Positions 21,040 through 37,907 of a stretch of DNA of 64,000 nt are shown here, piece by piece. The stretch's first letter is position 1, and each line of letters begins with the position of its first letter. This DNA comes from a virus (taxonomy: Duplodnaviria; Caudoviricetes): positions 117,043-181,042 of the IMG/VR virus record IMGVR_UViG_3300031867_004305. One strand, given 5' to 3'. The position numbers and the translations under genes are program-made. Under the pieces are notes generated by a model. The model was not told the DNA's origin, did not search any database, and was given only the letters and a program-made list of their open reading frames with translations.

Positions 21040-21470
21040 TTAGGTTCCTCCTGTAAAAATCCTTCTGTTCGCGACAGTGAAAAGGGGTGGTTGGGGCTAG
21101 TAATATAAGCAAAGTAGAACTTATATTGCGTGTTCGCCATTAAAGAACGCTGGGAGTTCTCTTACCCCATAAGGTAGTCCGGAATACTCACAAGATTCGC
21201 TCGGTAACTAATTTTATCGTAACTTGAAATTAGCGGTAGTCAACCTCGTAAGTGTTGGACGTGTTGGCCTACGAATAGAAGCTACCAGTCTTCAGGTAAA
21301 TGGAGAATGAGGTGCCCGGGTGGGCGTGCCAACCAAGAGTAGAAAGAGGCACAATGGAGTATACACAACGCGAGTGTTTATTCCTACTGTTACTCGCGGC
21401 AGGTAGGATGATAGAACTGATGGATTGAGGCCCGGAGGTATTGATTCTGAACTTGCTGCGAGATTTATAC
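21040..21470 (+). ncRNA. Unassigned structured ncRNA candidate (~430 nt)
   Basis: No credible ORF; GC-enriched; several hairpins (GTAATATAAG/CTTATATTGC, CGCGAGT/ACTCGCG). Confidence 0.5.
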
Positions 21471-21619
21471 CGATCCCTAGCTCAGTAGGTCTAGAGCAGC
21501 GGCCTTCACGAAGTACAATCAAGTAGATGGTCTGAAATTACTCAGGCGGGTGACAGGTTCAAATCCTTCCTTCGTGACCAATAAGCCGTGTGTCCTGGGT
21601 TCGAGTCCCAGGGGATCGA
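21471..21619 (+). tRNA. tRNA-Ile(UAU) interrupted in the anticodon by a 74-nt tRNA-like insert (21507-21580)
   Basis: CGATCCC/GGGATCG acceptor, D and T arms intact; GCGGC-CTT[insert]ATAA-GCCGT. Confidence 0.8.
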
Positions 21620-21699
21620 GAGATACATAAACTCAGCCTTCACGTGGCGTATCTTGTTTTCACTAATGGGTTTACTTTATAAAAAGGAGGTATTTAATT

Positions 21700-22338
21700 A
21701 TGCCATACATTTATAAAATTGTAAATGATATTAATAATAAAATATATGTTGGGAAAACATTGAAAACAGTTCAAGAAAGATGGAAGCAGCATTTATATGA
21801 TTATGATAAAAAAAGAAATGAAAAACGACCTTTATATGATGCTATGTTAAAATATGGTCCTAATCATTTTCATATAGAAGAATTAGAAAATGTTTTAGAC
21901 GCGACTTTATTAAATGAACGCGAAAAATATTGGATTGAATTTTTACATTCTTTTCAAGATGGGTATAACGCCACATGCGGCGGAGATGGGACCCCATATG
22001 CTGATTATGCATTAATCTATGAATTATATACAATTCATAACTTAACATTTGAAAAAATTCAAAATATAACTAATTATGATATGCGTACTATACGTGCTGC
22101 TATTATGAGTTGTGGTATTTCAAAAGAAAATATTGAAAAAATCCGCTTACAAAGATTAAGAAAGCCTGTAATGCAGTTAGATATAAAAACAGAAGAAATT
22201 TTAAAAATTTTTCCTAGTTGTACTGCTGCACAGCGTGAAGTTAGTAATAATCCAAATGATTATTCTGGTACTCATATTTCTGCTGTATGCCGTGGCAAAA
22301 GACGTACTGCCTATGGTTATAAATGGAAATACTTGTAA
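21700..22338 (+). CDS. GIY-YIG homing endonuclease with NUMOD1-like C-terminus
   Basis: YIYKI.N.IN.KIYVGKT...R...H...E...GYN.T.GG; terminal ISAVCRGKRRTAYGYKW. Confidence 0.88.
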   Translation: MPYIYKIVNDINNKIYVGKTLKTVQERWKQHLYDYDKKRNEKRPLYDAMLKYGPNHFHIEELENVLDATLLNEREKYWIEFLHSFQDGYNATCGGDGTPYADYALIYELYTIHNLTFEKIQNITNYDMRTIRAAIMSCGISKENIEKIRLQRLRKPVMQLDIKTEEILKIFPSCTAAQREVSNNPNDYSGTHISAVCRGKRRTAYGYKWKYL

Positions 22339-24058: not shown

Positions 24059-24239
24059 TTGATTTGGGATGATAATTTATATGACGCGATGAAAGATGTA
24101 TATGACTATGCCTATCGCGTTTTTTTTGGAAAAGCACCCATAGATGTTACTTATCGTGTGAATTATGGCAGTAGAGGAGCAGAACAAAAAGTTTTACAGT
24201 ATATTTGGAACACTTATATTGAACCGAAGGGAGAAAATA

Positions 24240-24821
24240 ATGAGTAATATTTATTTCAGTAGTGACTTGCATTTTTGTCATAACCGCGGTTTTCTTTATG
24301 AGCCACGCGGTTTTTCATCTATCGAAGAACATGACTCTGCCATTATTGAAAACTGGAATAAAATAGTTAAAAATAATGATGTTGTTTTTCTACTTGGTGA
24401 TTTAATGCTTAATGATAATGTAAATGGTATTAAAAAATTAAATAAATTAAATGGCACGATATATTACATACGAGGAAACCATTGCTCAAATGCGCGTTGC
24501 GTCCTATACGAAGAACAAACTAATATGATTCCGCTATGTAATAATTTCTTTAGTAGTTGGGCTTCATTAGAAAAAATCAAAGGATATAATTTGTATTTAT
24601 CTCATTATCCAACTATAATTGGCTCATTAAAAGATATGACGCCATTAAACAAGAGATTAATAAATCTTCATGGTCATCTTCATAGTAAAAATAAATTCTA
24701 TCAAGATATTCCTTTTATGTATAATGTAGCACTTGACGCACATAATAACGCGCCCGTATCATTTGATGAAATTATTTCAGATATTGAAGCAAAAGCAAAT
24801 GAATGTATTGCTATGCTATAA
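24240..24821 (+). CDS. Calcineurin-like metallophosphoesterase
   Basis: SDLHFCH, LGD, GNH, SHYP, HGHLH motifs. Confidence 0.88.
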   Translation: MSNIYFSSDLHFCHNRGFLYEPRGFSSIEEHDSAIIENWNKIVKNNDVVFLLGDLMLNDNVNGIKKLNKLNGTIYYIRGNHCSNARCVLYEEQTNMIPLCNNFFSSWASLEKIKGYNLYLSHYPTIIGSLKDMTPLNKRLINLHGHLHSKNKFYQDIPFMYNVALDAHNNAPVSFDEIISDIEAKANECIAML

Positions 24822-25222: not shown

Positions 25223-26758
25223 ATGAATCGTCTTTACAATGCTATGGCTTCTCAGAACACCTACAAGACTACCGAGAATGGTGCTATCGCACGCACCACG
25301 ACCAGCTCTAAGCTATATGACCTCTTCTCTTTCGGCGCGGCTTACCGTCAGCGTACCGAGAGTGATTGCGTGCTACTATTTAAGGAGGCATATAAGGAAA
25401 GTCCTATGTATGCCCTAAAGTGCCTGTTCTATATCCGCGATATTCGCGGCGGACAGGGTGAGCGTCGTTTCTTCCGCACTTGCCTGCATTGGCTTGCGGA
25501 TTATGACCGCAATGCCGTACTACGCAATCTTGACCAGATTGCTGAGTATGGCCGCTGGGATGACCTATATGCCCTAGTGGGGACTTCTTGTGAACATGAT
25601 GCTCTTTATGCTCTTGGCAAGCAGCTTGCCCTTGATTACAAGACCAAGGGTGCTATTTCCCTTGCCGGTAAGTGGGCAGCTTCAGAGAACGCTTCTTCTG
25701 CCAAGACTAAGCGTTATGGTCGTCTAACTGCTCATACTATGGGTCTAACTTCTCGTCAATATCGCAAGGTGCTTTCTACCCTTCGTGAGCGTATTCGTGT
25801 TCTGGAGCGACTTATGTCCGCAAATCGTTGGAATGAGATTGAATTTGACAAGATTCCTTCTCGTGCTGGCCTAATCTACAAGAACGCTTTTGCACGCCGT
25901 GATATCATCAAGGCGAAGTATGAGTCTTTTGCAAAGGATAAGACTACCAAGGTTAACGCGGCAGCCCTCTATCCTTACGATGTCGTAGCTAAGGCAATTA
26001 AGCTGATGGGCTCTGACAGCTGGTATGGCCGTGGTAATCATGTTGCTCTTGACAATACCGATCGTCTAATGATTAACAAGTATTGGGAGAATCTTGTTGA
26101 TTATCTGACTGGTGCTCCACTAAATGCGGTGGTAGTGGCTGATACAAGCGGAAGTATGTGTTCAGGTGCTAATAGTGTGGCTCCAATTGATGTTGCTGTT
26201 TCTTTGGCTCTATACGCGGCCGAACGTATGCGTGGTCCTTTTGCCAATCATTATATTTCTTTTAGCCGTAAGGCTCGTTTAATCGAGACTACTGGCGTGG
26301 ATTTTTGTGATAAGGTAGATAGGATTGTAAGGACGAATCTATGTGAAAATACGAATTTAGCTTCCGTATTTGACCTTATCCTAAGTACTGCTTGTCACTA
26401 TAATCTATCTCAAAAGGATATGCCAGAAAGCATTATTATTGTAACAGATATGGAAGTAGATTCCGCACAGGGTTATTCTTCTTGGGGACGAGCACCTGAA
26501 TATGGACACGGCGGTAAGGGAATTCAAACCTTTATGGATAAGATGCGTAGTCGTTGGACTGACGCAGGATATAAAATGCCAAAAATTGTATTTTGGAACG
26601 TAAACGCACGAAATAATACAATTTTGGATGATGGCCCTGATGTTACTAATGTCAGCGGTTGCTCACCGGTTCTATTTGAATCTATCCTATCTGGAAAAAG
26701 TTCTTATGATCTTATGATGGATAAGCTAAATAGTAATCGTTATAAGCCAATTCATTAA
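25223..26758 (+). CDS. DUF2828-family TROVE/Ro60-like protein with C-terminal vWA domain
   Basis: TENGA, RDIRGGQGERRFF, EYGRWDDL, KW motifs; MIDAS DTSGSM; TDME; FWNVN. Confidence 0.82.
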   Translation: MNRLYNAMASQNTYKTTENGAIARTTTSSKLYDLFSFGAAYRQRTESDCVLLFKEAYKESPMYALKCLFYIRDIRGGQGERRFFRTCLHWLADYDRNAVLRNLDQIAEYGRWDDLYALVGTSCEHDALYALGKQLALDYKTKGAISLAGKWAASENASSAKTKRYGRLTAHTMGLTSRQYRKVLSTLRERIRVLERLMSANRWNEIEFDKIPSRAGLIYKNAFARRDIIKAKYESFAKDKTTKVNAAALYPYDVVAKAIKLMGSDSWYGRGNHVALDNTDRLMINKYWENLVDYLTGAPLNAVVVADTSGSMCSGANSVAPIDVAVSLALYAAERMRGPFANHYISFSRKARLIETTGVDFCDKVDRIVRTNLCENTNLASVFDLILSTACHYNLSQKDMPESIIIVTDMEVDSAQGYSSWGRAPEYGHGGKGIQTFMDKMRSRWTDAGYKMPKIVFWNVNARNNTILDDGPDVTNVSGCSPVLFESILSGKSSYDLMMDKLNSNRYKPIH

Positions 26759-26798: not shown

Positions 26799-27542
26799 AT
26801 GGGAAGGCCCGCTAAAGATTTAACAAATCAAAGATTTCAACGATTATTAGTAATTAAGCGTGATGGTTCTACAGCTGATGGTCATGCTAAATGGTTATGT
26901 TTATGTAACTGCGGTAATTATATAAGTGTATCATCCAATAGTTTAAAACGCGGTGATACTAAATCTTGTGGATGCTTAAATAAAGATGTAGCAAGAGAAA
27001 AAGGTAGACAATCTTATAAAGATCTCACTAATAAACGTTTTAATAAACTAATTGCTAAAGAATATTTAGGAAGTAATAATAAAGGAAGTGGTTTATGGAG
27101 ATGCGAATGTGATTGTGGAAATAATAATTTTATTACAACGTCGCACCATTTAATTAGCAGCAATACGCAAAGCTGTGGTTGCTTAAAATCAAAAGGAGAA
27201 GCAAATATAAAACAACTACTTATAAATAATAATATTAATTTTATTTCACAATATTACTTTAAAGATTTATATTATGAAAGTAATATACCTGTTCGATTTG
27301 ATTTTTATTTACCCGATTATAACCGATTAATTGAATTTGATGGTATTCAACATTATACTTCTGGCGGTGGATGGAACACCGCTGAATTATTTAAACGCAA
27401 TAAAAAACACGACGAAATTAGAAACCAATATGCCCTTTCCCACAACATTCCTCTCGTTCGCATACCATATTGGGAACGTGATAATATTACTCTTGAAATG
27501 TTATTTAGTGATGAATATTTAGTGAAAGAAGAAGATGAATGA
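26799..27542 (+). CDS. Putative homing endonuclease (Zn-binding repeats + Vsr/DUF559-like nuclease)
   Basis: Two DLT..RF..L...W.C.C.CG...SCGC repeats; RFDFYLP...IEFDGIQH. Confidence 0.75.
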   Translation: MGRPAKDLTNQRFQRLLVIKRDGSTADGHAKWLCLCNCGNYISVSSNSLKRGDTKSCGCLNKDVAREKGRQSYKDLTNKRFNKLIAKEYLGSNNKGSGLWRCECDCGNNNFITTSHHLISSNTQSCGCLKSKGEANIKQLLINNNINFISQYYFKDLYYESNIPVRFDFYLPDYNRLIEFDGIQHYTSGGGWNTAELFKRNKKHDEIRNQYALSHNIPLVRIPYWERDNITLEMLFSDEYLVKEEDE

Positions 27543-28397: not shown

Positions 28398-29048
28398 ATG
28401 AGAAAGTATGAAAAGATTGATACTCTCTATCAAAGAGACACAACCGGAACTAAAAAGTTGCTTCCGGGAGTATTTCGTGATCCTACCGTAGAATATCTCA
28501 GCGACAATAATTGGATTTGGACTGAAAAGGTTGATGGCACTAATATCCGTGTATGTTGGGATGGCCATACTGTAACCTTTGGCGGCCGCACCGATAATGC
28601 TGCTATTCCCGCAGAACTTGTTACTCGTTTGAATGAGTTGTTCGGTGGAGAAACAAATGCTCAAATTTTTGAACAGGTTTTCGGCGATAAGGAAGTCATT
28701 CTTTTCGGTGAAGGCTATGGTCGCAAGATTCAAAAGGGCGGTGGAAAGTATATTCCCGACGGCGTAGATTTTATTCTTTTTGATGTGCTTATTGGCGACA
28801 ATTATCAAGAACGAGAATGGGTAGAAGAAACTGCCACAATGTTTGGAATTAAAGCTGTTCCTATTGTTGGCACTGGTAGTCTATATGCCGCAGGAGAGTA
28901 TGTAAAAACCCATCCTAATTCTGTAATTGCAGAAGAGCCGCGTGAAATGGAAGGAGTAGTATGTCGTCCTGCAATTGAACTACGCAATCGTCGCGGCGAG
29001 CGTATAATCGTAAAAATCAAATGGGAAGATATGAAGGAGCTAGTATAA
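28398..29048 (+). CDS. ATP-dependent RNA ligase (Rnl2-like nucleotidyltransferase core)
   Basis: Motif I EKVDGTN, III FGEGYG, IIIa FILFDV, IV EGVVCR, V IVKIK. Confidence 0.85.
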   Translation: MRKYEKIDTLYQRDTTGTKKLLPGVFRDPTVEYLSDNNWIWTEKVDGTNIRVCWDGHTVTFGGRTDNAAIPAELVTRLNELFGGETNAQIFEQVFGDKEVILFGEGYGRKIQKGGGKYIPDGVDFILFDVLIGDNYQEREWVEETATMFGIKAVPIVGTGSLYAAGEYVKTHPNSVIAEEPREMEGVVCRPAIELRNRRGERIIVKIKWEDMKELV

Positions 29049-29050
29049 TT

Positions 29051-29260
29051 ATGCTAATACGTTATGAAGTAGAGTTTTGGGATGAAATGGATCATCAAAT
29101 ACGAGCAGAGAAGGGTTTAACAGCAAGCGTCTCTACTCTAGGAGAAGGCGTAGATAAAATTGCTGAATATTATGGTAAAAGTAATATCAGTTTTATTAAA
29201 GTATATGAATGTGAAGATTGTATTTGTGATGAAGAACTAAAAGATTTACTAGAAGATTAG
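29051..29260 (+). CDS. Hypothetical protein
   Basis: ORF with RBS. Confidence 0.5.
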   Translation: MLIRYEVEFWDEMDHQIRAEKGLTASVSTLGEGVDKIAEYYGKSNISFIKVYECEDCICDEELKDLLED

Positions 29261-29263
29261 TAT

Positions 29264-29292
29264 TTGACTTTTATTAAAAATTCTGATATAAT
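29264..29292 (+). promoter_or_regulatory. sigmaA-type promoter for tRNA-Met and the large ncRNA
   Basis: TTGACT-17 bp-TATAAT. Confidence 0.85.
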
Positions 29293-29328
29293 TATTATAC
29301 AAGGTGAGGGAAAGAGCCCTCACAACGA

Positions 29329-29406
29329 TGCGGGATCGCCAAGTTGGTTAAGGCACGAGCCTCATAAACTCGTTACGCGTGGGTCCGAGTCCCACTCCCG
29401 CAACCA
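29329..29406 (+). tRNA. tRNA-Met(CAU)
   Basis: TGCGGGA/TCCCGCA acceptor; CTCATAA loop; ACCA. Confidence 0.85.
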
Positions 29407-29412
29407 CCAACG

Positions 29413-30144
29413 AACAGGCGTTGTAAAATATCCTGTGTCCGCAAGAGTGATTGATACTAGTCTAAGTGGTCTCAACGGCGGAATATAAATAGGCAAAACC
29501 AAATTAGTATTGTATTAAATGAGCGGTGTTTAATGGGAACTGGAAATTACACACGGAAGCCCTGAGCGGGAGTACTACCGCAAGTTCTGCTATATGGGAG
29601 CAGACGCTCATTTAAAGCAACCGGTTGATTTACGTAATTAAGTCGTTAGGAGCGACATGAGCAGCAATGCGGTAATACCGGTGCACCGGTAGCAAAGTTA
29701 CCCTGGCTCCCCAGATGGCGCACTGGGTTATCAAAGGGCCGCTTGGCACCCTATCCCGAGCGTCTTCGTCGCGGTGCTAGAAACTCGCCCCATTAGCTGA
29801 GGGTCGAGGCAAAGAGGGAACGTTGTTGGTGGTAACGGTGAAGATTCGCCCGGTATTCTAGGCTTGCCGTAAAAGTGGTGGGTATACACACCACAGTCTA
29901 AACCCCAGTATATGTTGCGAACGACCTGGGTAAACAAAGTCGTTAGTTGGCGTCTTATCCCAAGCCTTTACGCGGCGACGCTATAAGTACCAAGAAGCAT
30001 TTTTAATGCTGGGCGTGAAACAAAGAGGGAACTAGGAGGCTGTGACCAAGGGTGATGTGGTCTGACAGTCCGAGTAATGACCGTTGAAGTCATTCGGTCG
30101 GTAGCAGGGCTCGGCCGTTACAACAGTGGATGCATACGCTTGTT
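29413..30144 (+). ncRNA. Large structured ncRNA candidate (~730 nt)
   Basis: End-to-end pairing AACAGGCGT/ACGCTTGTT; many internal helices; no credible ORF. Confidence 0.65.
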
Positions 30145-30302
30145 AGCCCTTTTTATTGATTCGGGAGGAAGTGTCCGTAGATGAACTTCTCGGAGTAATC
30201 GCCAAAATCGAATCGTGGTATACCATTGTACGAAACTTCTGTCATCCTTAGTTTCTTGCAGTTTCAAGGATGAGGGTCGCGGCCACCAGAGCGCCGCAAT
30301 AT

Positions 30303-30373
30303 GCTGCGTTAGTCCAGTGGTAAGACACGAGGCTTTCAATCTCGGCAGAGGGGTTCAATTCCCCTACGCAGTA
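30303..30373 (+). tRNA. tRNA-Glu(UUC), CCA not encoded
   Basis: CGAGG-CTTTCAA-TCTCG. Confidence 0.85.
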
Positions 30374-30506
30374 CTCCTCCTTTTGGAGATATTTCCTAAC
30401 CTTACAAGAAAAAGTCAAGTTGAAAACTTGACTTTTTTCAATTTTATGTTATAATTATACATAAAGGTAGGCCCAGGCCTATTTAAATAAAGCGAGGTGT
30501 ATAATT

Positions 30507-32544: not shown

Positions 32545-32679
32545 CCACGCGTGGTGCAAATGGCGAGACACAGCGGACTTACGTAGGCCCAGTGGCTTGT
32601 TGGAGAGCAACACTCCTTCCTACGACCAAAATCCGCGACGCAAGATACATTGCTGGTTCAAATCCAGTCGCGTGGACCA
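32545..32679 (+). tRNA. tRNA-Leu(UAA) interrupted in the anticodon by a 47-nt tRNA-minihelix-like insert (32582-32628)
   Basis: CCACGCG/CGCGTGG-ACCA; GCGGA-CTTA[insert]AAA-TCCGC; long variable region; T arm intact. Confidence 0.8.
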
Positions 32680-32837: not shown

Positions 32838-33794
32838 ATGGAAACTTACACAAATATTTGGTTAGATATTTCAGAAGAACAATGGAGAAAAATTATTTCT
32901 ACTAGTCTAACTCGTGCAGAGGTCGCACGCAAAGTTAATCGTTGTCCCAATTCAAGTTTTAATGAGCGTTTAAAAAAATATTGTGATGAACATAATATCT
33001 CTATTGAACATTTTACAATTAATGAAAATGGCAATAAAGAGAAATATCAACTTGAAGAAATTCTAGTAGAAAACTCTCCTGCTTCGAGAAAAACATTAAG
33101 AGACTATTTAGCAAAATATAACATTCTAGAATATAAATGTGCTATTTGCGGGAATGTTGGAGAATGGAATGGAGTTTCTTTAACTTTACAAATAGACCAT
33201 ATTAATGGAATAAATAATGATAATAGAAAAGAAAATCTTCGTTGGTTATGTCCAAATTGTCATTCTCAAACTGACACGTTTACTGGGAAAAATAAAACTA
33301 AAAAAGAAGTTGTTAATTTCACAGTAGAAGAAGCGATTAAAGCATTAAGACAAACTGAAAATGTAAATCAAGCAACTAAATTAATCGGTTGTGCGCAAGG
33401 TGGAGCAAATTGGATTAGAGTAAATGATATTAAGAAAGAATATGGAATTGTTCAATCTGGAGATTTAAAAAAAGAAGAAAAATATAAGTTTGAAGAAAAT
33501 CATATTAATGTAAAACCAATGAACTTTATTAAATTATGTAAAAAGTGCGGTCGTCCATTATCGACAAAAGATGCTGAGTATTGTCAAACTTGTATTCACG
33601 AATTTCAACGAAAATGTGAATGGCCTTCCCGCGAAGAACTTAAAAAATTAATCCGTTCCACACCTTTTTTACAAATAGGTAAAAAATATAATGTAAGTGA
33701 TAACGCTGTAAGAAAATGGTGTTTAAATTACGGTTTACCATCTAAAAAAAAGGAAATCAAAGCAATTTCAGATGAAGAGTGGGCTACCATTTGA
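32838..33794 (+). CDS. HNH homing endonuclease
   Basis: CAIC...LQIDHING...DNRKENLRWLCPNCH. Confidence 0.88.
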   Translation: METYTNIWLDISEEQWRKIISTSLTRAEVARKVNRCPNSSFNERLKKYCDEHNISIEHFTINENGNKEKYQLEEILVENSPASRKTLRDYLAKYNILEYKCAICGNVGEWNGVSLTLQIDHINGINNDNRKENLRWLCPNCHSQTDTFTGKNKTKKEVVNFTVEEAIKALRQTENVNQATKLIGCAQGGANWIRVNDIKKEYGIVQSGDLKKEEKYKFEENHINVKPMNFIKLCKKCGRPLSTKDAEYCQTCIHEFQRKCEWPSREELKKLIRSTPFLQIGKKYNVSDNAVRKWCLNYGLPSKKKEIKAISDEEWATI

Positions 33795-34603: not shown

Positions 34604-35197
34604 GTAGATACCCTATTTAATAAAATGGTTGAACCAAGTGAAGAAGAGCTAACCACTCTGCTTGGACTATCCGAAAAACAGCCCCAAACTTGATGGGATA
34701 CTTTCAAGCCAAGGCCGCGAAATCAGTAATGATTAGCGATATGGAGAAACTCCTAATGTTAAGGGTAGGTGCTTGGTTATCCGCTAACAAAAACTTGGCT
34801 CCTCGCGGCGTCGTAATAGAAGGTGGGCGTTAAAAGCGTGACCTGAATCCAAGTTAGGCGTAGGATGGCTGCCACCGCAAACCTTGGAAATGCCAACAAG
34901 ACGCTTGGTGTCGTTGAAACCTAGAAATAGGATATAAGCGAGGTTCACAGAAAAAGTAGCCCAAAACGACAATGATTCTAATAGATATTTGTAAATATTA
35001 CTTGGAATTATTGTGCTGAACGGTTCGGGTGAAATTTGAGAGTAAGCAATCTCTCCGTTGCTCACCGAAAGGTAGGGTGAAGAAGTCCGGAATTGCTACC
35101 CGTGGCTCAGCCTTCATCTTCAACGTGGTTGAATATGTTAGAAGGATAATACAAGTACGACGAAGGTCGCAACGGTTTTATTAAATAGGGTATTTGC
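34604..35197 (+). ncRNA. Large ncRNA, ROOL-like (~590 nt)
   Basis: Long closing helix ATACCCTATTTAATAAAA/TTTTATTAAATAGGGTAT; size and tRNA-cluster context fit ROOL; family assignment is recollection, not a search. Confidence 0.6.
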
Positions 35198-37358: not shown

Positions 37359-37907
37359 ATGCCTAAAAGAATGACACAAGAAGATTTTAATGCTAGAATA
37401 AAAGATTACACTAATGATTCTATAATAGTTATTGGAGAATATAAAAATAAAAAAACTCCTGTTTTAATACAATGTAAAAAATGTAATTACAAATGGTATT
37501 ATTCTCCAGCATCATTAATGCCTAGTTCTACAAAAAATTATCATTTTAAAGGTTGCCCTAATTGTAAAAAAGTAACTCTTTTTTGCTTAGAATGTGGAAA
37601 AGAATTTACTCGGTTAAAAACTGAAATAAATGACAATAATTTTTGTTGTAAAACTTGTGCAAATCGTTATAAAAATAAACAAAAAATCAATAAAATTGAT
37701 AGTTTAGCATACAGACGCAATGCTTTTGAATATTATCCGCACAAATGCGATATTTGTGGTTGGAATAAAGATGAAAGAGTATTAGAAGTTCATCATTTAG
37801 ACGAAGATAGAACTAATAATCATATTGATAATTTACGAATTTTGTGTCCAAATTGTCATAAATTTTTAACATTGCATCTTTATTCTTATGAAGAAATGAA
37901 ACAGTAA
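37359..37907 (+). CDS. HNH endonuclease
   Basis: CDICGW...LEVHH.DEDRTNN.IDNL.ILCPNCH. Confidence 0.85.
   Translation: MPKRMTQEDFNARIKDYTNDSIIVIGEYKNKKTPVLIQCKKCNYKWYYSPASLMPSSTKNYHFKGCPNCKKVTLFCLECGKEFTRLKTEINDNNFCCKTCANRYKNKQKINKIDSLAYRRNAFEYYPHKCDICGWNKDERVLEVHHLDEDRTNNHIDNLRILCPNCHKFLTLHLYSYEEMKQ

Follow-up and report, generated by a model that had tools for sequence, protein, structure and literature searches.

The sole tRNA-Ile gene of a cattle-rumen phage, tRNA-Ile(UAU), carries inside its anticodon a 74-nt insert that is itself shaped like a tRNA. This shape is kept in related loci, which suggests that the insert may be excised by enzymes that trim tRNAs and the exons resealed by an RNA ligase of the phage. 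The stretch of DNA analysed (the window) is the final 64 kb of a complete 181,042-bp IMG/VR record with a G+C content of 36.6%.

A tRNA-shaped insert within the anticodon of tRNA-Ile(UAU)

The split gene consists of the following parts:
21471..21506 (+): 5' exon of tRNA-Ile(UAU), positions 1-34 (acceptor 5' strand, D arm, 5' strand of the anticodon stem, loop nucleotides CTT)
21507..21580 (+): putative intron, the 74-nt tRNA-shaped insert (Rfam tRNA match of 22.1 bits, below threshold; MFE fold; covariation)
21581..21619 (+): 3' exon of tRNA-Ile(UAU), positions 35-73 (loop nucleotides ATAA, 3' strand of the anticodon stem, variable loop, T arm, acceptor 3' strand, discriminator A)

Apart from the insert, which lies between nucleotides 34 and 35, the cloverleaf at 21471-21619 is intact. 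Its acceptor strands (21471-21477 with 21612-21618) and anticodon stem strands (21499-21503 with 21585-21589) pair, a D arm is present, the T arm spans 21595-21611 and the discriminator A is at 21619. The anticodon loop consists of CTT, the 74 nt and ATAA, as the preliminary description had it, and ARAGORN in intron mode recognizes exactly 21471-21619 as a single tRNA with a 74-nt intron. The claim that removal of the insert restores a 7-nt loop was likewise borne out: with exactly 21507-21580 deleted, the remaining 75 nt are called as tRNA-Ile(tat) by ARAGORN, with no need of intron mode, and the same junction is present in the uninterrupted L153 allele described below. The resulting loop, CTTATAA, also occurs in over 80 phage tRNA-Ile(UAU) genes that have no insert and share the identical anticodon arm. 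When the 149-nt precursor is folded, its MFE structure shows the outer cloverleaf as well as the inner acceptor stem. Neither ARAGORN with default settings nor Rfam at the gathering threshold reports a gene at 21471-21619; as ARAGORN permits introns at 37/38 only, it misnames the split tRNA-Ile as Arg-tct. Because tRNA finders miss or mislabel such genes, the tRNA repertoires of large phages and the estimates of their codon supply are biased. The outer tRNA-Ile has no encoded CCA, its discriminator A being followed by GAG (window 21612-21622); CCA is encoded by the insert and by most other tRNAs of the phage, and also by the outer tRNA of two related alleles (L007 and L004).

The insert has a 7-bp acceptor stem, a discriminator A, a CCA end and the T-loop TTCAAAT, and its D and anticodon arms are degenerate. 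Its description as tRNA-shaped from +1 to CCA agrees with an end-to-end alignment to the Rfam tRNA model, scoring 22.1 bits (E 0.025 in a 341-nt search) and hence below the gathering score of 29; ARAGORN calls no tRNA in the insert alone. With a T stem of 3 pairs and an "anticodon" loop of 6 nt (or 8), the insert is a mimic and not a decoding tRNA. By our own arithmetic a 7/7 terminal stem with a CCA end has a chance of (6/16)^7 x 1/64, about 2e-5, per insert; the nested arrangement is genuine and by far exceeds chance expectation. The predicted structure also contains the features of an RNase P substrate: the 7-bp acceptor stem stacked on the T arm, a 3' RCCA and a 3-nt leader, CTT.

The insert had been held to be neither a group I intron nor bordered by a bulge-helix-bulge, and the Rfam scan and precursor folds agree on both counts. 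A cmscan of 21380-21720 matched no Rfam family of group I introns or small ribozymes even at E 10, and the last base of the insert is the A of CCA in 9/9 alleles, not the terminal omega-G of group I introns. Group I introns likewise occupy tRNA anticodon loops (in bacteria, plastids and phages), show a patchy, mobile distribution and have homing endonuclease genes nearby. They measure, however, ~200 nt or more and possess a P1-P9 core and a terminal G, whereas the present insert has 74 nt and ends in A; moreover, unlike group I introns, the five unrelated inserts found here have only the tRNA shape in common. No bulge-helix-bulge appears in the MFE or centroid folds of the precursor, where the borders flank a 7-8-bp helix formed by the insert alone. 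The complete 181-kb phage record yielded no EndA (PF01974, which the same search detects in four archaeal control genomes), RtcB, T4 Rnl1, RNase Z-like protein or CCA-adding enzyme, and we know of no EndA in bacteria. The archaeal and eukaryotic tRNA introns (removed by EndA/TSEN with RtcB or Trl1) resemble the scheme proposed here in that they depend on proteins, take two cuts and a ligation, and have exons held by the tRNA body. They differ in lying at 37/38 and in leaving a cyclic phosphate and a 5'-OH, whereas the inserts here lie at 34/35 or 35/36 and the expected ends are a 3'-OH and a 5'-P. We give roughly even weight to the insert being a third kind of intron, neither self-splicing nor of the bulge-helix-bulge type, that would act as a tRNA mimic and recruit the cellular tRNA end-processing enzymes.

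Insert families, covariation and sister phages

Split loci were sought with a pattern comprising only the two halves of the outer anticodon arm, with no requirement for CCA. It returned six viral contigs with inserts of 74-77 nt, and a metagenome scan with the same pattern added inserts of 77 and 83 nt. Viral and metagenome contigs together yield nine distinct alleles; their inserts (74-83 nt) fall into five unrelated families and all lie at the 34/35 site. Every insert of the nine tRNA-Ile alleles ends in ACCA, six of these alleles coming from the search that was blind to CCA; the first 7 nt of each insert pair with the 7 nt preceding ACCA, and each folds so on its own. In the inner acceptor 7/7 pairs show double compensatory changes and 98.4% of the cells are paired. 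The outer tRNA covaries at 5/7 acceptor pairs and 3/5 T-stem pairs, its anticodon stem being invariant by the design of the search. Taking all stems together, 99.2% of the cells are paired versus 35-47% in slid-partner controls, and the observed covariation was reached by none of 500 shuffles. Judged by these substitutions, the tRNA shape of the insert is maintained by selection. The preliminary description had looked to relatives for inserts with a covarying stem and a CCA end, and had named decayed outer arms, or inserts lacking the stem and CCA, as evidence to the contrary; the nine tRNA-Ile alleles show the former throughout and none of the latter.

The same exons hold different inserts, and one insert family occurs in different exon backgrounds, hence inserts and exons have evidently been reshuffled. 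Among 185,579 prokaryote genomes the split-anticodon-arm pattern gave 31 matches against ~34 expected by chance and none in a tRNA, so that collection contains no cellular copy with this anticodon arm. Both the locus and the surrounding 8 kb are unmatched among the INPHARED phages, and no exact uninterrupted copy of the window's own allele is present in IMG/VR.

The ligase protein described below retrieved 17 related loci. In one of them (L153, ligase 90% identical) the tRNA-Ile(UAU) at the same locus, with a matching upstream flank, is uninterrupted and has the exons of the split L007 allele, which fixes the insertion point at CTT|ATAA. The tRNA-Leu(UAA) of L153 is uninterrupted as well, but its tRNA-Glu(UUC) and tRNA-Asn(GUU) are split by inserts of 44 and 49 nt. 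Another sister phage (G002, ligase 95% identical) has three split genes, for tRNA-Ile(UAU), tRNA-Leu(UAA) and tRNA-Lys(UUU); a "tRNA-His" with a 399-nt "intron" that ARAGORN reports in it was rejected as a false call in a promoter-like repeat region.

The window itself holds a second split gene, a class II tRNA-Leu(UAA) at 32545-32679:
32545..32581 (+): 5' exon of tRNA-Leu(UAA), positions 1-35 (ARAGORN intron mode, nested check)
32582..32628 (+): 47-nt minihelix-type insert between anticodon positions 35 and 36 (6-bp acceptor stem, one hairpin, ACCA)
32629..32679 (+): 3' exon of tRNA-Leu(UAA) with the long variable arm and an encoded CCA (from the sequence)

The homologous insert in G002 carries a compensatory change in its stem, and the tRNA-Leu(UAA) gene is uninterrupted in sister phages. 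The other inserts of this lineage are minihelices of 44-50 nt, made of an acceptor stem, one hairpin and NCCA, which together form the smallest kind of RNA that RNase P accepts. Their sites are 34/35 or 35/36, in tRNAs for Leu, Lys, Glu and Asn; with sites varying in this way, the cut sites track the insert and not the host tRNA. One homolog of the split tRNA-Leu(UAA) (L152:7237-7376, +) has an insert ending in ACAA instead of ACCA; this copy may be in decay, or the variant may be tolerated.

The inserts closest to a real tRNA are found in G002 and L004/L005, in which the tRNA-Ile insert is a canonical tRNA of 76-77 nt with the anticodon CUA, called outright by ARAGORN:
L003:991-1141 (G002, -): canonical tRNA(CUA) nested in tRNA-Ile(UAU) (ARAGORN)
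L004:25-174 (+): canonical tRNA(CUA) nested in tRNA-Ile(UAU) (ARAGORN)

The acceptor stem, T-loop and 3' end of these inserts are clearly homologous to those of the window's mimic, which accordingly looks like a decayed tRNA with its ends retained. The canonical inserts also lend themselves to a reading in which the inner RNA is a product of a two-in-one gene or switch and the nesting couples or opposes the two outputs, for instance by yielding tRNA-Ile only upon expression of the ligase. We consider this very unlikely, because the inner RNA of the window, with its 6-nt loop, 3-bp T stem and lack of an ARAGORN call, cannot decode, the minihelix inserts have no anticodon arm at all, and in G002, as in the window phage (G000), the code is standard and TAG makes up ~10% of stops, so that a suppressor is not evidently needed. 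The nested tRNA(CUA) is of the amber-suppressor type, and signs of TAG recoding were absent from these sister phages. Such recoding was rejected as the reason for the nested tRNA(CUA), since in G000 and G002 the gain in open frames from TAG readthrough does not exceed that from TGA.

It may also be that the insert is never spliced. The tRNA-Ile gene would then have been inactivated by a selfish element derived from a tRNA, RNase P would free the inner mimic or no useful product would arise, and the outer cloverleaf would owe its intact look to the youth of the insertions. The presence or absence of inserts among near-identical sisters, typical of young mobile elements, is in line with this, the host may decode AUA by itself, and the outer tRNA could be intact in part because inserts have lately spread into functional genes, and not because selection acted once they were in place. 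Such a dead gene is nevertheless unlikely in our estimation: 188 of 189 outer-stem cells are paired in the nine insert-bearing alleles, which have four different outer acceptor stems, and the insert family that occurs in different exon backgrounds is itself diverged, which implies age. The insertions always lie within the anticodon and run exactly from +1 to CCA, a precision needless in dead genes, and the split genes read codons that are frequent in the long open frames of the phage (ATA, 27% of the Ile codons; TTA, 38% of the Leu codons) and have no intact duplicate in it. Removal of the insert from the RNA, by whatever route, we regard as probable, and this removal would be the reason why the insert is tolerated. 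Parts of the region are present in six bovine-gut sequencing runs (best share 0.28 of words); the joint 21506>21581 is not among the 15 joints listed out of 42, which derive from assembled contigs only of four bovine-gut runs.

The RNA ligase and the proposed splicing route

The candidate for resealing the exons is encoded downstream of the split tRNA-Ile:
28398..29048 (+): Rnl2-type ATP-dependent RNA ligase, 216 aa, candidate exon sealer (PF09414, phrog_548, nearest solved chain)

That this gene encodes a phage Rnl2-type ligase, as had been assumed from the start, is well supported by its sequence. The protein matches PF09414 with 58.5 bits (cut-off 27) and phrog_548, an RNA ligase family, motif I is intact (KxDG, here KVDG at residues 44-47), and the nearest solved chain is T4 Rnl2 (1S68, E 0.0065). 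It consists of the N-terminal nucleotidyltransferase domain only and is devoid of the C-terminal domain of T4 Rnl2. T4 Rnl2 has 334 aa and needs its C-terminal domain for 5'-adenylylation, and Rnl2 prefers nicked duplexes over breaks in loops. The ligase gene lies inside the tRNA island, and homologs with 93-95% identity are present in G001 and G002, both of which have a split tRNA-Ile. As the ligase is also found where the tRNA-Ile has no insert, in sister phages and one unrelated phage, tRNA repair by itself can account for its presence. In an unrelated phage with a nested tRNA-Ile (G003), a gene encoding a PHA02142 OB-fold and a PF09414 ligase (L141:7093-9453, +) contains an intein that carries a LAGLIDADG endonuclease.

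For a sample independent of the ligase, IMG/VR was scanned with a pattern of two T-loops ~45 nt apart with NCCA between them, which gave more than 119 matches. Nesting was verified in 14 of the 80 loci listed (out of these >119), in 11 by splicing followed by ARAGORN and in three by the intron mode of ARAGORN only. About 65 of the 80 listed two-T-loop loci (L180-L259) have no nesting in the anticodon; in these, a solitary hairpin resembling a T arm, together with an acceptor-like 3' strand, follows a normal tRNA within 15-18 nt of the CCA. In this sample an Rnl1- or Rnl2-type ligase occurs in 6/7 large nested records and 9/21 large non-nested ones (p 0.06), and, with G000-G008 added, in 10/11 nested records and 11/26 without nesting (Fisher one-sided p 0.007); "without" here stands for no verified nesting at the matched site, and the statistics ignore kinship. 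The ligases of most other lineages with nested tRNAs are of the Rnl1 type, and RtcB was found in 0/13 records with nested tRNAs. One record with nested tRNAs in which no ligase was found (G022) is 72% complete, and G006 has the ligase without the split tRNA. Given the kinship among the records, controls defined at the matched site only and a ligase that occurs without a split tRNA in G006, the association is suggestive, being confounded by phylogeny and genome size.

The enzymatic steps that follow are our proposal, put forward from the observed anatomy, covariation, presence/absence polymorphism, ligase identity and ligase co-occurrence. The ends left by RNase P and RNase Z are a 3'-OH and a 5'-P, and a +1 nucleotide, a 7-bp acceptor stem on a hairpin and NCCA are the features that the bacterial RNase P and RNase Z read. 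A +1, an acceptor stem stacked on a hairpin and NCCA are also the sole features that the unrelated inserts share. We propose that RNase P would read the inner acceptor/T-arm stack with the 3' ACCA and cut at 21506/21507, giving the 5' exon a 3'-OH. An endonuclease cut right behind the inner CCA, at 21580/21581, would then give the 3' exon a 5'-phosphate; this second cut could be made by RNase E/Y, or by an RNase Z-type enzyme once the 5' end of the mimic has been matured. The exons would be held together by the outer acceptor and anticodon stems until an ATP-dependent ligase that needs a 3'-OH and a 5'-P, possibly the protein encoded at 28398-29048, seals the anticodon loop to generate tRNA-Ile(UAU). 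The insert would be a selfish, exchangeable element, present or absent among sisters and in the window decayed from a real tRNA to the essentials for processing.

For the second cut, the original scheme cautioned that only some RNase Z enzymes cut behind CCA. This caution stands for the B. subtilis-type enzyme, which is strongly inhibited by CCA, and is relaxed by the RNase Z of archaea (methanogens) and T. maritima and, weakly, of B. subtilis, which cut directly behind an encoded CCA (PMC7479834). For cutting of this kind the 5' end must already be matured and the acceptor stem present; the archaeal enzymes tolerate the loss of other arms (PMC7479834). RNase E is able to make CCA ends directly (cited in PMC7479834). 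The initial reading of the insert as an intron removed by tRNA end-processing and sealed by the phage ligase is supported in part, by ends that coincide with a tRNA +1 and CCA, by 7/7 covarying pairs and by a ligase of the Rnl2 type; tRNA maturation gated by the ligase, as that reading has it, would be a possible regulatory device. For the full pathway of RNase P, a cut behind CCA and an ATP-dependent ligase, we judge the chances to be nearly balanced.

The insert could also be spliced by another route, by a dedicated phage nuclease, a different host RNase or a host ligase, its tRNA shape then being a handle for something else. In its favour, many genes of the tRNA island have no Pfam match, a TROVE/vWA-like RNA-binding protein and a metallophosphoesterase are encoded there too, no RNase Z-like protein is encoded by the phage itself, and CCA is not strictly invariant, as seen from the ACAA tail in L152. 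Against such a route, the conserved +1, 7-bp stem, NCCA and T hairpin are generally known as RNase P and RNase Z determinants, RtcB is missing from all 13 nested records, and a sequence-specific nuclease would find nothing but the tRNA shape in common among the five unrelated inserts. We hold this alternative to be rather improbable.

If removal by RNase P, a cut behind CCA and ligation is correct, RNase P and RNase Z would be able to serve as splicing nucleases, with a phage RNA ligase completing the splicing. To our knowledge, the tRNA introns of bacteria and phages are thought to be removed by self-splicing only, and the role of T4 Rnl2 has been unclear since its discovery. The proposed pathway would suggest a natural substrate for the Rnl2-type ligases and give the Rnl1- and Rnl2-type enzymes a housekeeping role beyond the repair of anticodon-nuclease damage. 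One gene could, in addition, yield two tRNAs, for example in a sister phage with a canonical tRNA(CUA) insert.

Related systems and the surrounding tRNA island

Full-text literature searches found no mechanism described for such inserts and retrieved a single remark, from 2019, on the tRNA introns of Lak phages. Devoto et al. (2019, PMC6784885) call the introns of Lak megaphage tRNAs "enigmatic", mention that one of them may itself encode a tRNA, and propose no mechanism. According to Fig. 4 and Table S6 of that paper, the Lak introns are likewise short, located in the anticodon loop, not of group I and present or absent between related phages (PMC6784885). In the Tyr and Phe introns listed in Table S6, however, the tRNA-like part lies 3' of ~25-30 extra bases and has no CCA end (PMC6784885), whereas the insert described here runs exactly from +1 to CCA, lies at 34/35 inside the anticodon and belongs to a 181-kb rumen phage with the standard code and an Rnl2-type ligase. 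The Lak introns are related in kind to the present insert and not the same.

In the T4 tRNA repair system (PrrC, Pnkp, Rnl1) a phage ATP-dependent ligase reseals a break in a tRNA anticodon loop, as we propose here. The T4 break is host-defence damage and its ends need healing, whereas in the proposed pathway the break would be programmed by the architecture of the gene and no healing would be needed. The split and permuted tRNA genes of Nanoarchaeum and Cyanidioschyzon and the YrlA Y RNA modules are likewise unusual, processing-dependent tRNA architectures, and the tRNA mimics among these systems are RNase P substrates. None of the three, however, is known to have a tRNA mimic inside the anticodon of another tRNA. 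That phages harbour a third, protein-dependent tRNA splicing pathway, in which mobile introns disguised as tRNAs would be removed by RNase P and RNase Z and the exons joined by Rnl1- or Rnl2-type ligases, seems to us about as plausible as its opposite.

The tRNA island is 23 kb long and has 19 ordinary tRNA genes and a ROOL RNA. Its other features are:
21700-22338 (+): GIY-YIG+NUMOD1 homing endonuclease, 81 nt downstream of the split tRNA-Ile
24165-24821 (+): metallophosphoesterase (phrog_547), between the split tRNA and the ligase
25223-26758 (+): DUF2828/DUF7788 protein (phrog_850, "RNA-binding protein", possibly Ro/TROVE-like), between the split tRNA and the ligase
26799-27542, 32838-33794 and 37359-37907 (+): three HNH homing endonucleases, scattered in the island
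34610-35188 (+): ROOL RNA, full-length, 307.6 bits, inside the island

Each of the two split tRNAs is followed directly by one of the four homing-endonuclease genes. The idea that the GIY-YIG gene is linked to the insert was rejected: this gene is missing behind the same split tRNA in G002 and L007, which makes it a separate insertion. The metallophosphoesterase and the DUF2828/DUF7788 protein look like an RNA repair or quality-control module.

Just upstream of the tRNA-Ile, the window encodes a conserved RNA of ~350 nt (21066-21420, +). Contigs from RNA libraries cover 21070-21378 at a depth of 93 in one run, compared with 0-4 in most coding bins and a higher depth only at 29180-30481, and those of a second run cover 21072-21421 and then pass into adapter. 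The ~350-nt RNA has no Rfam match, and the z-score of its single-sequence fold is -1.15. Homologs with 71-90% identity are located upstream of tRNA-Ile(UAU) in the relatives, whether the tRNA is split or not, and their RNAalifold consensus has 12 pairs with compensatory changes besides long invariant blocks. We consider the RNA at 21066-21420 a candidate for a new phage ncRNA.
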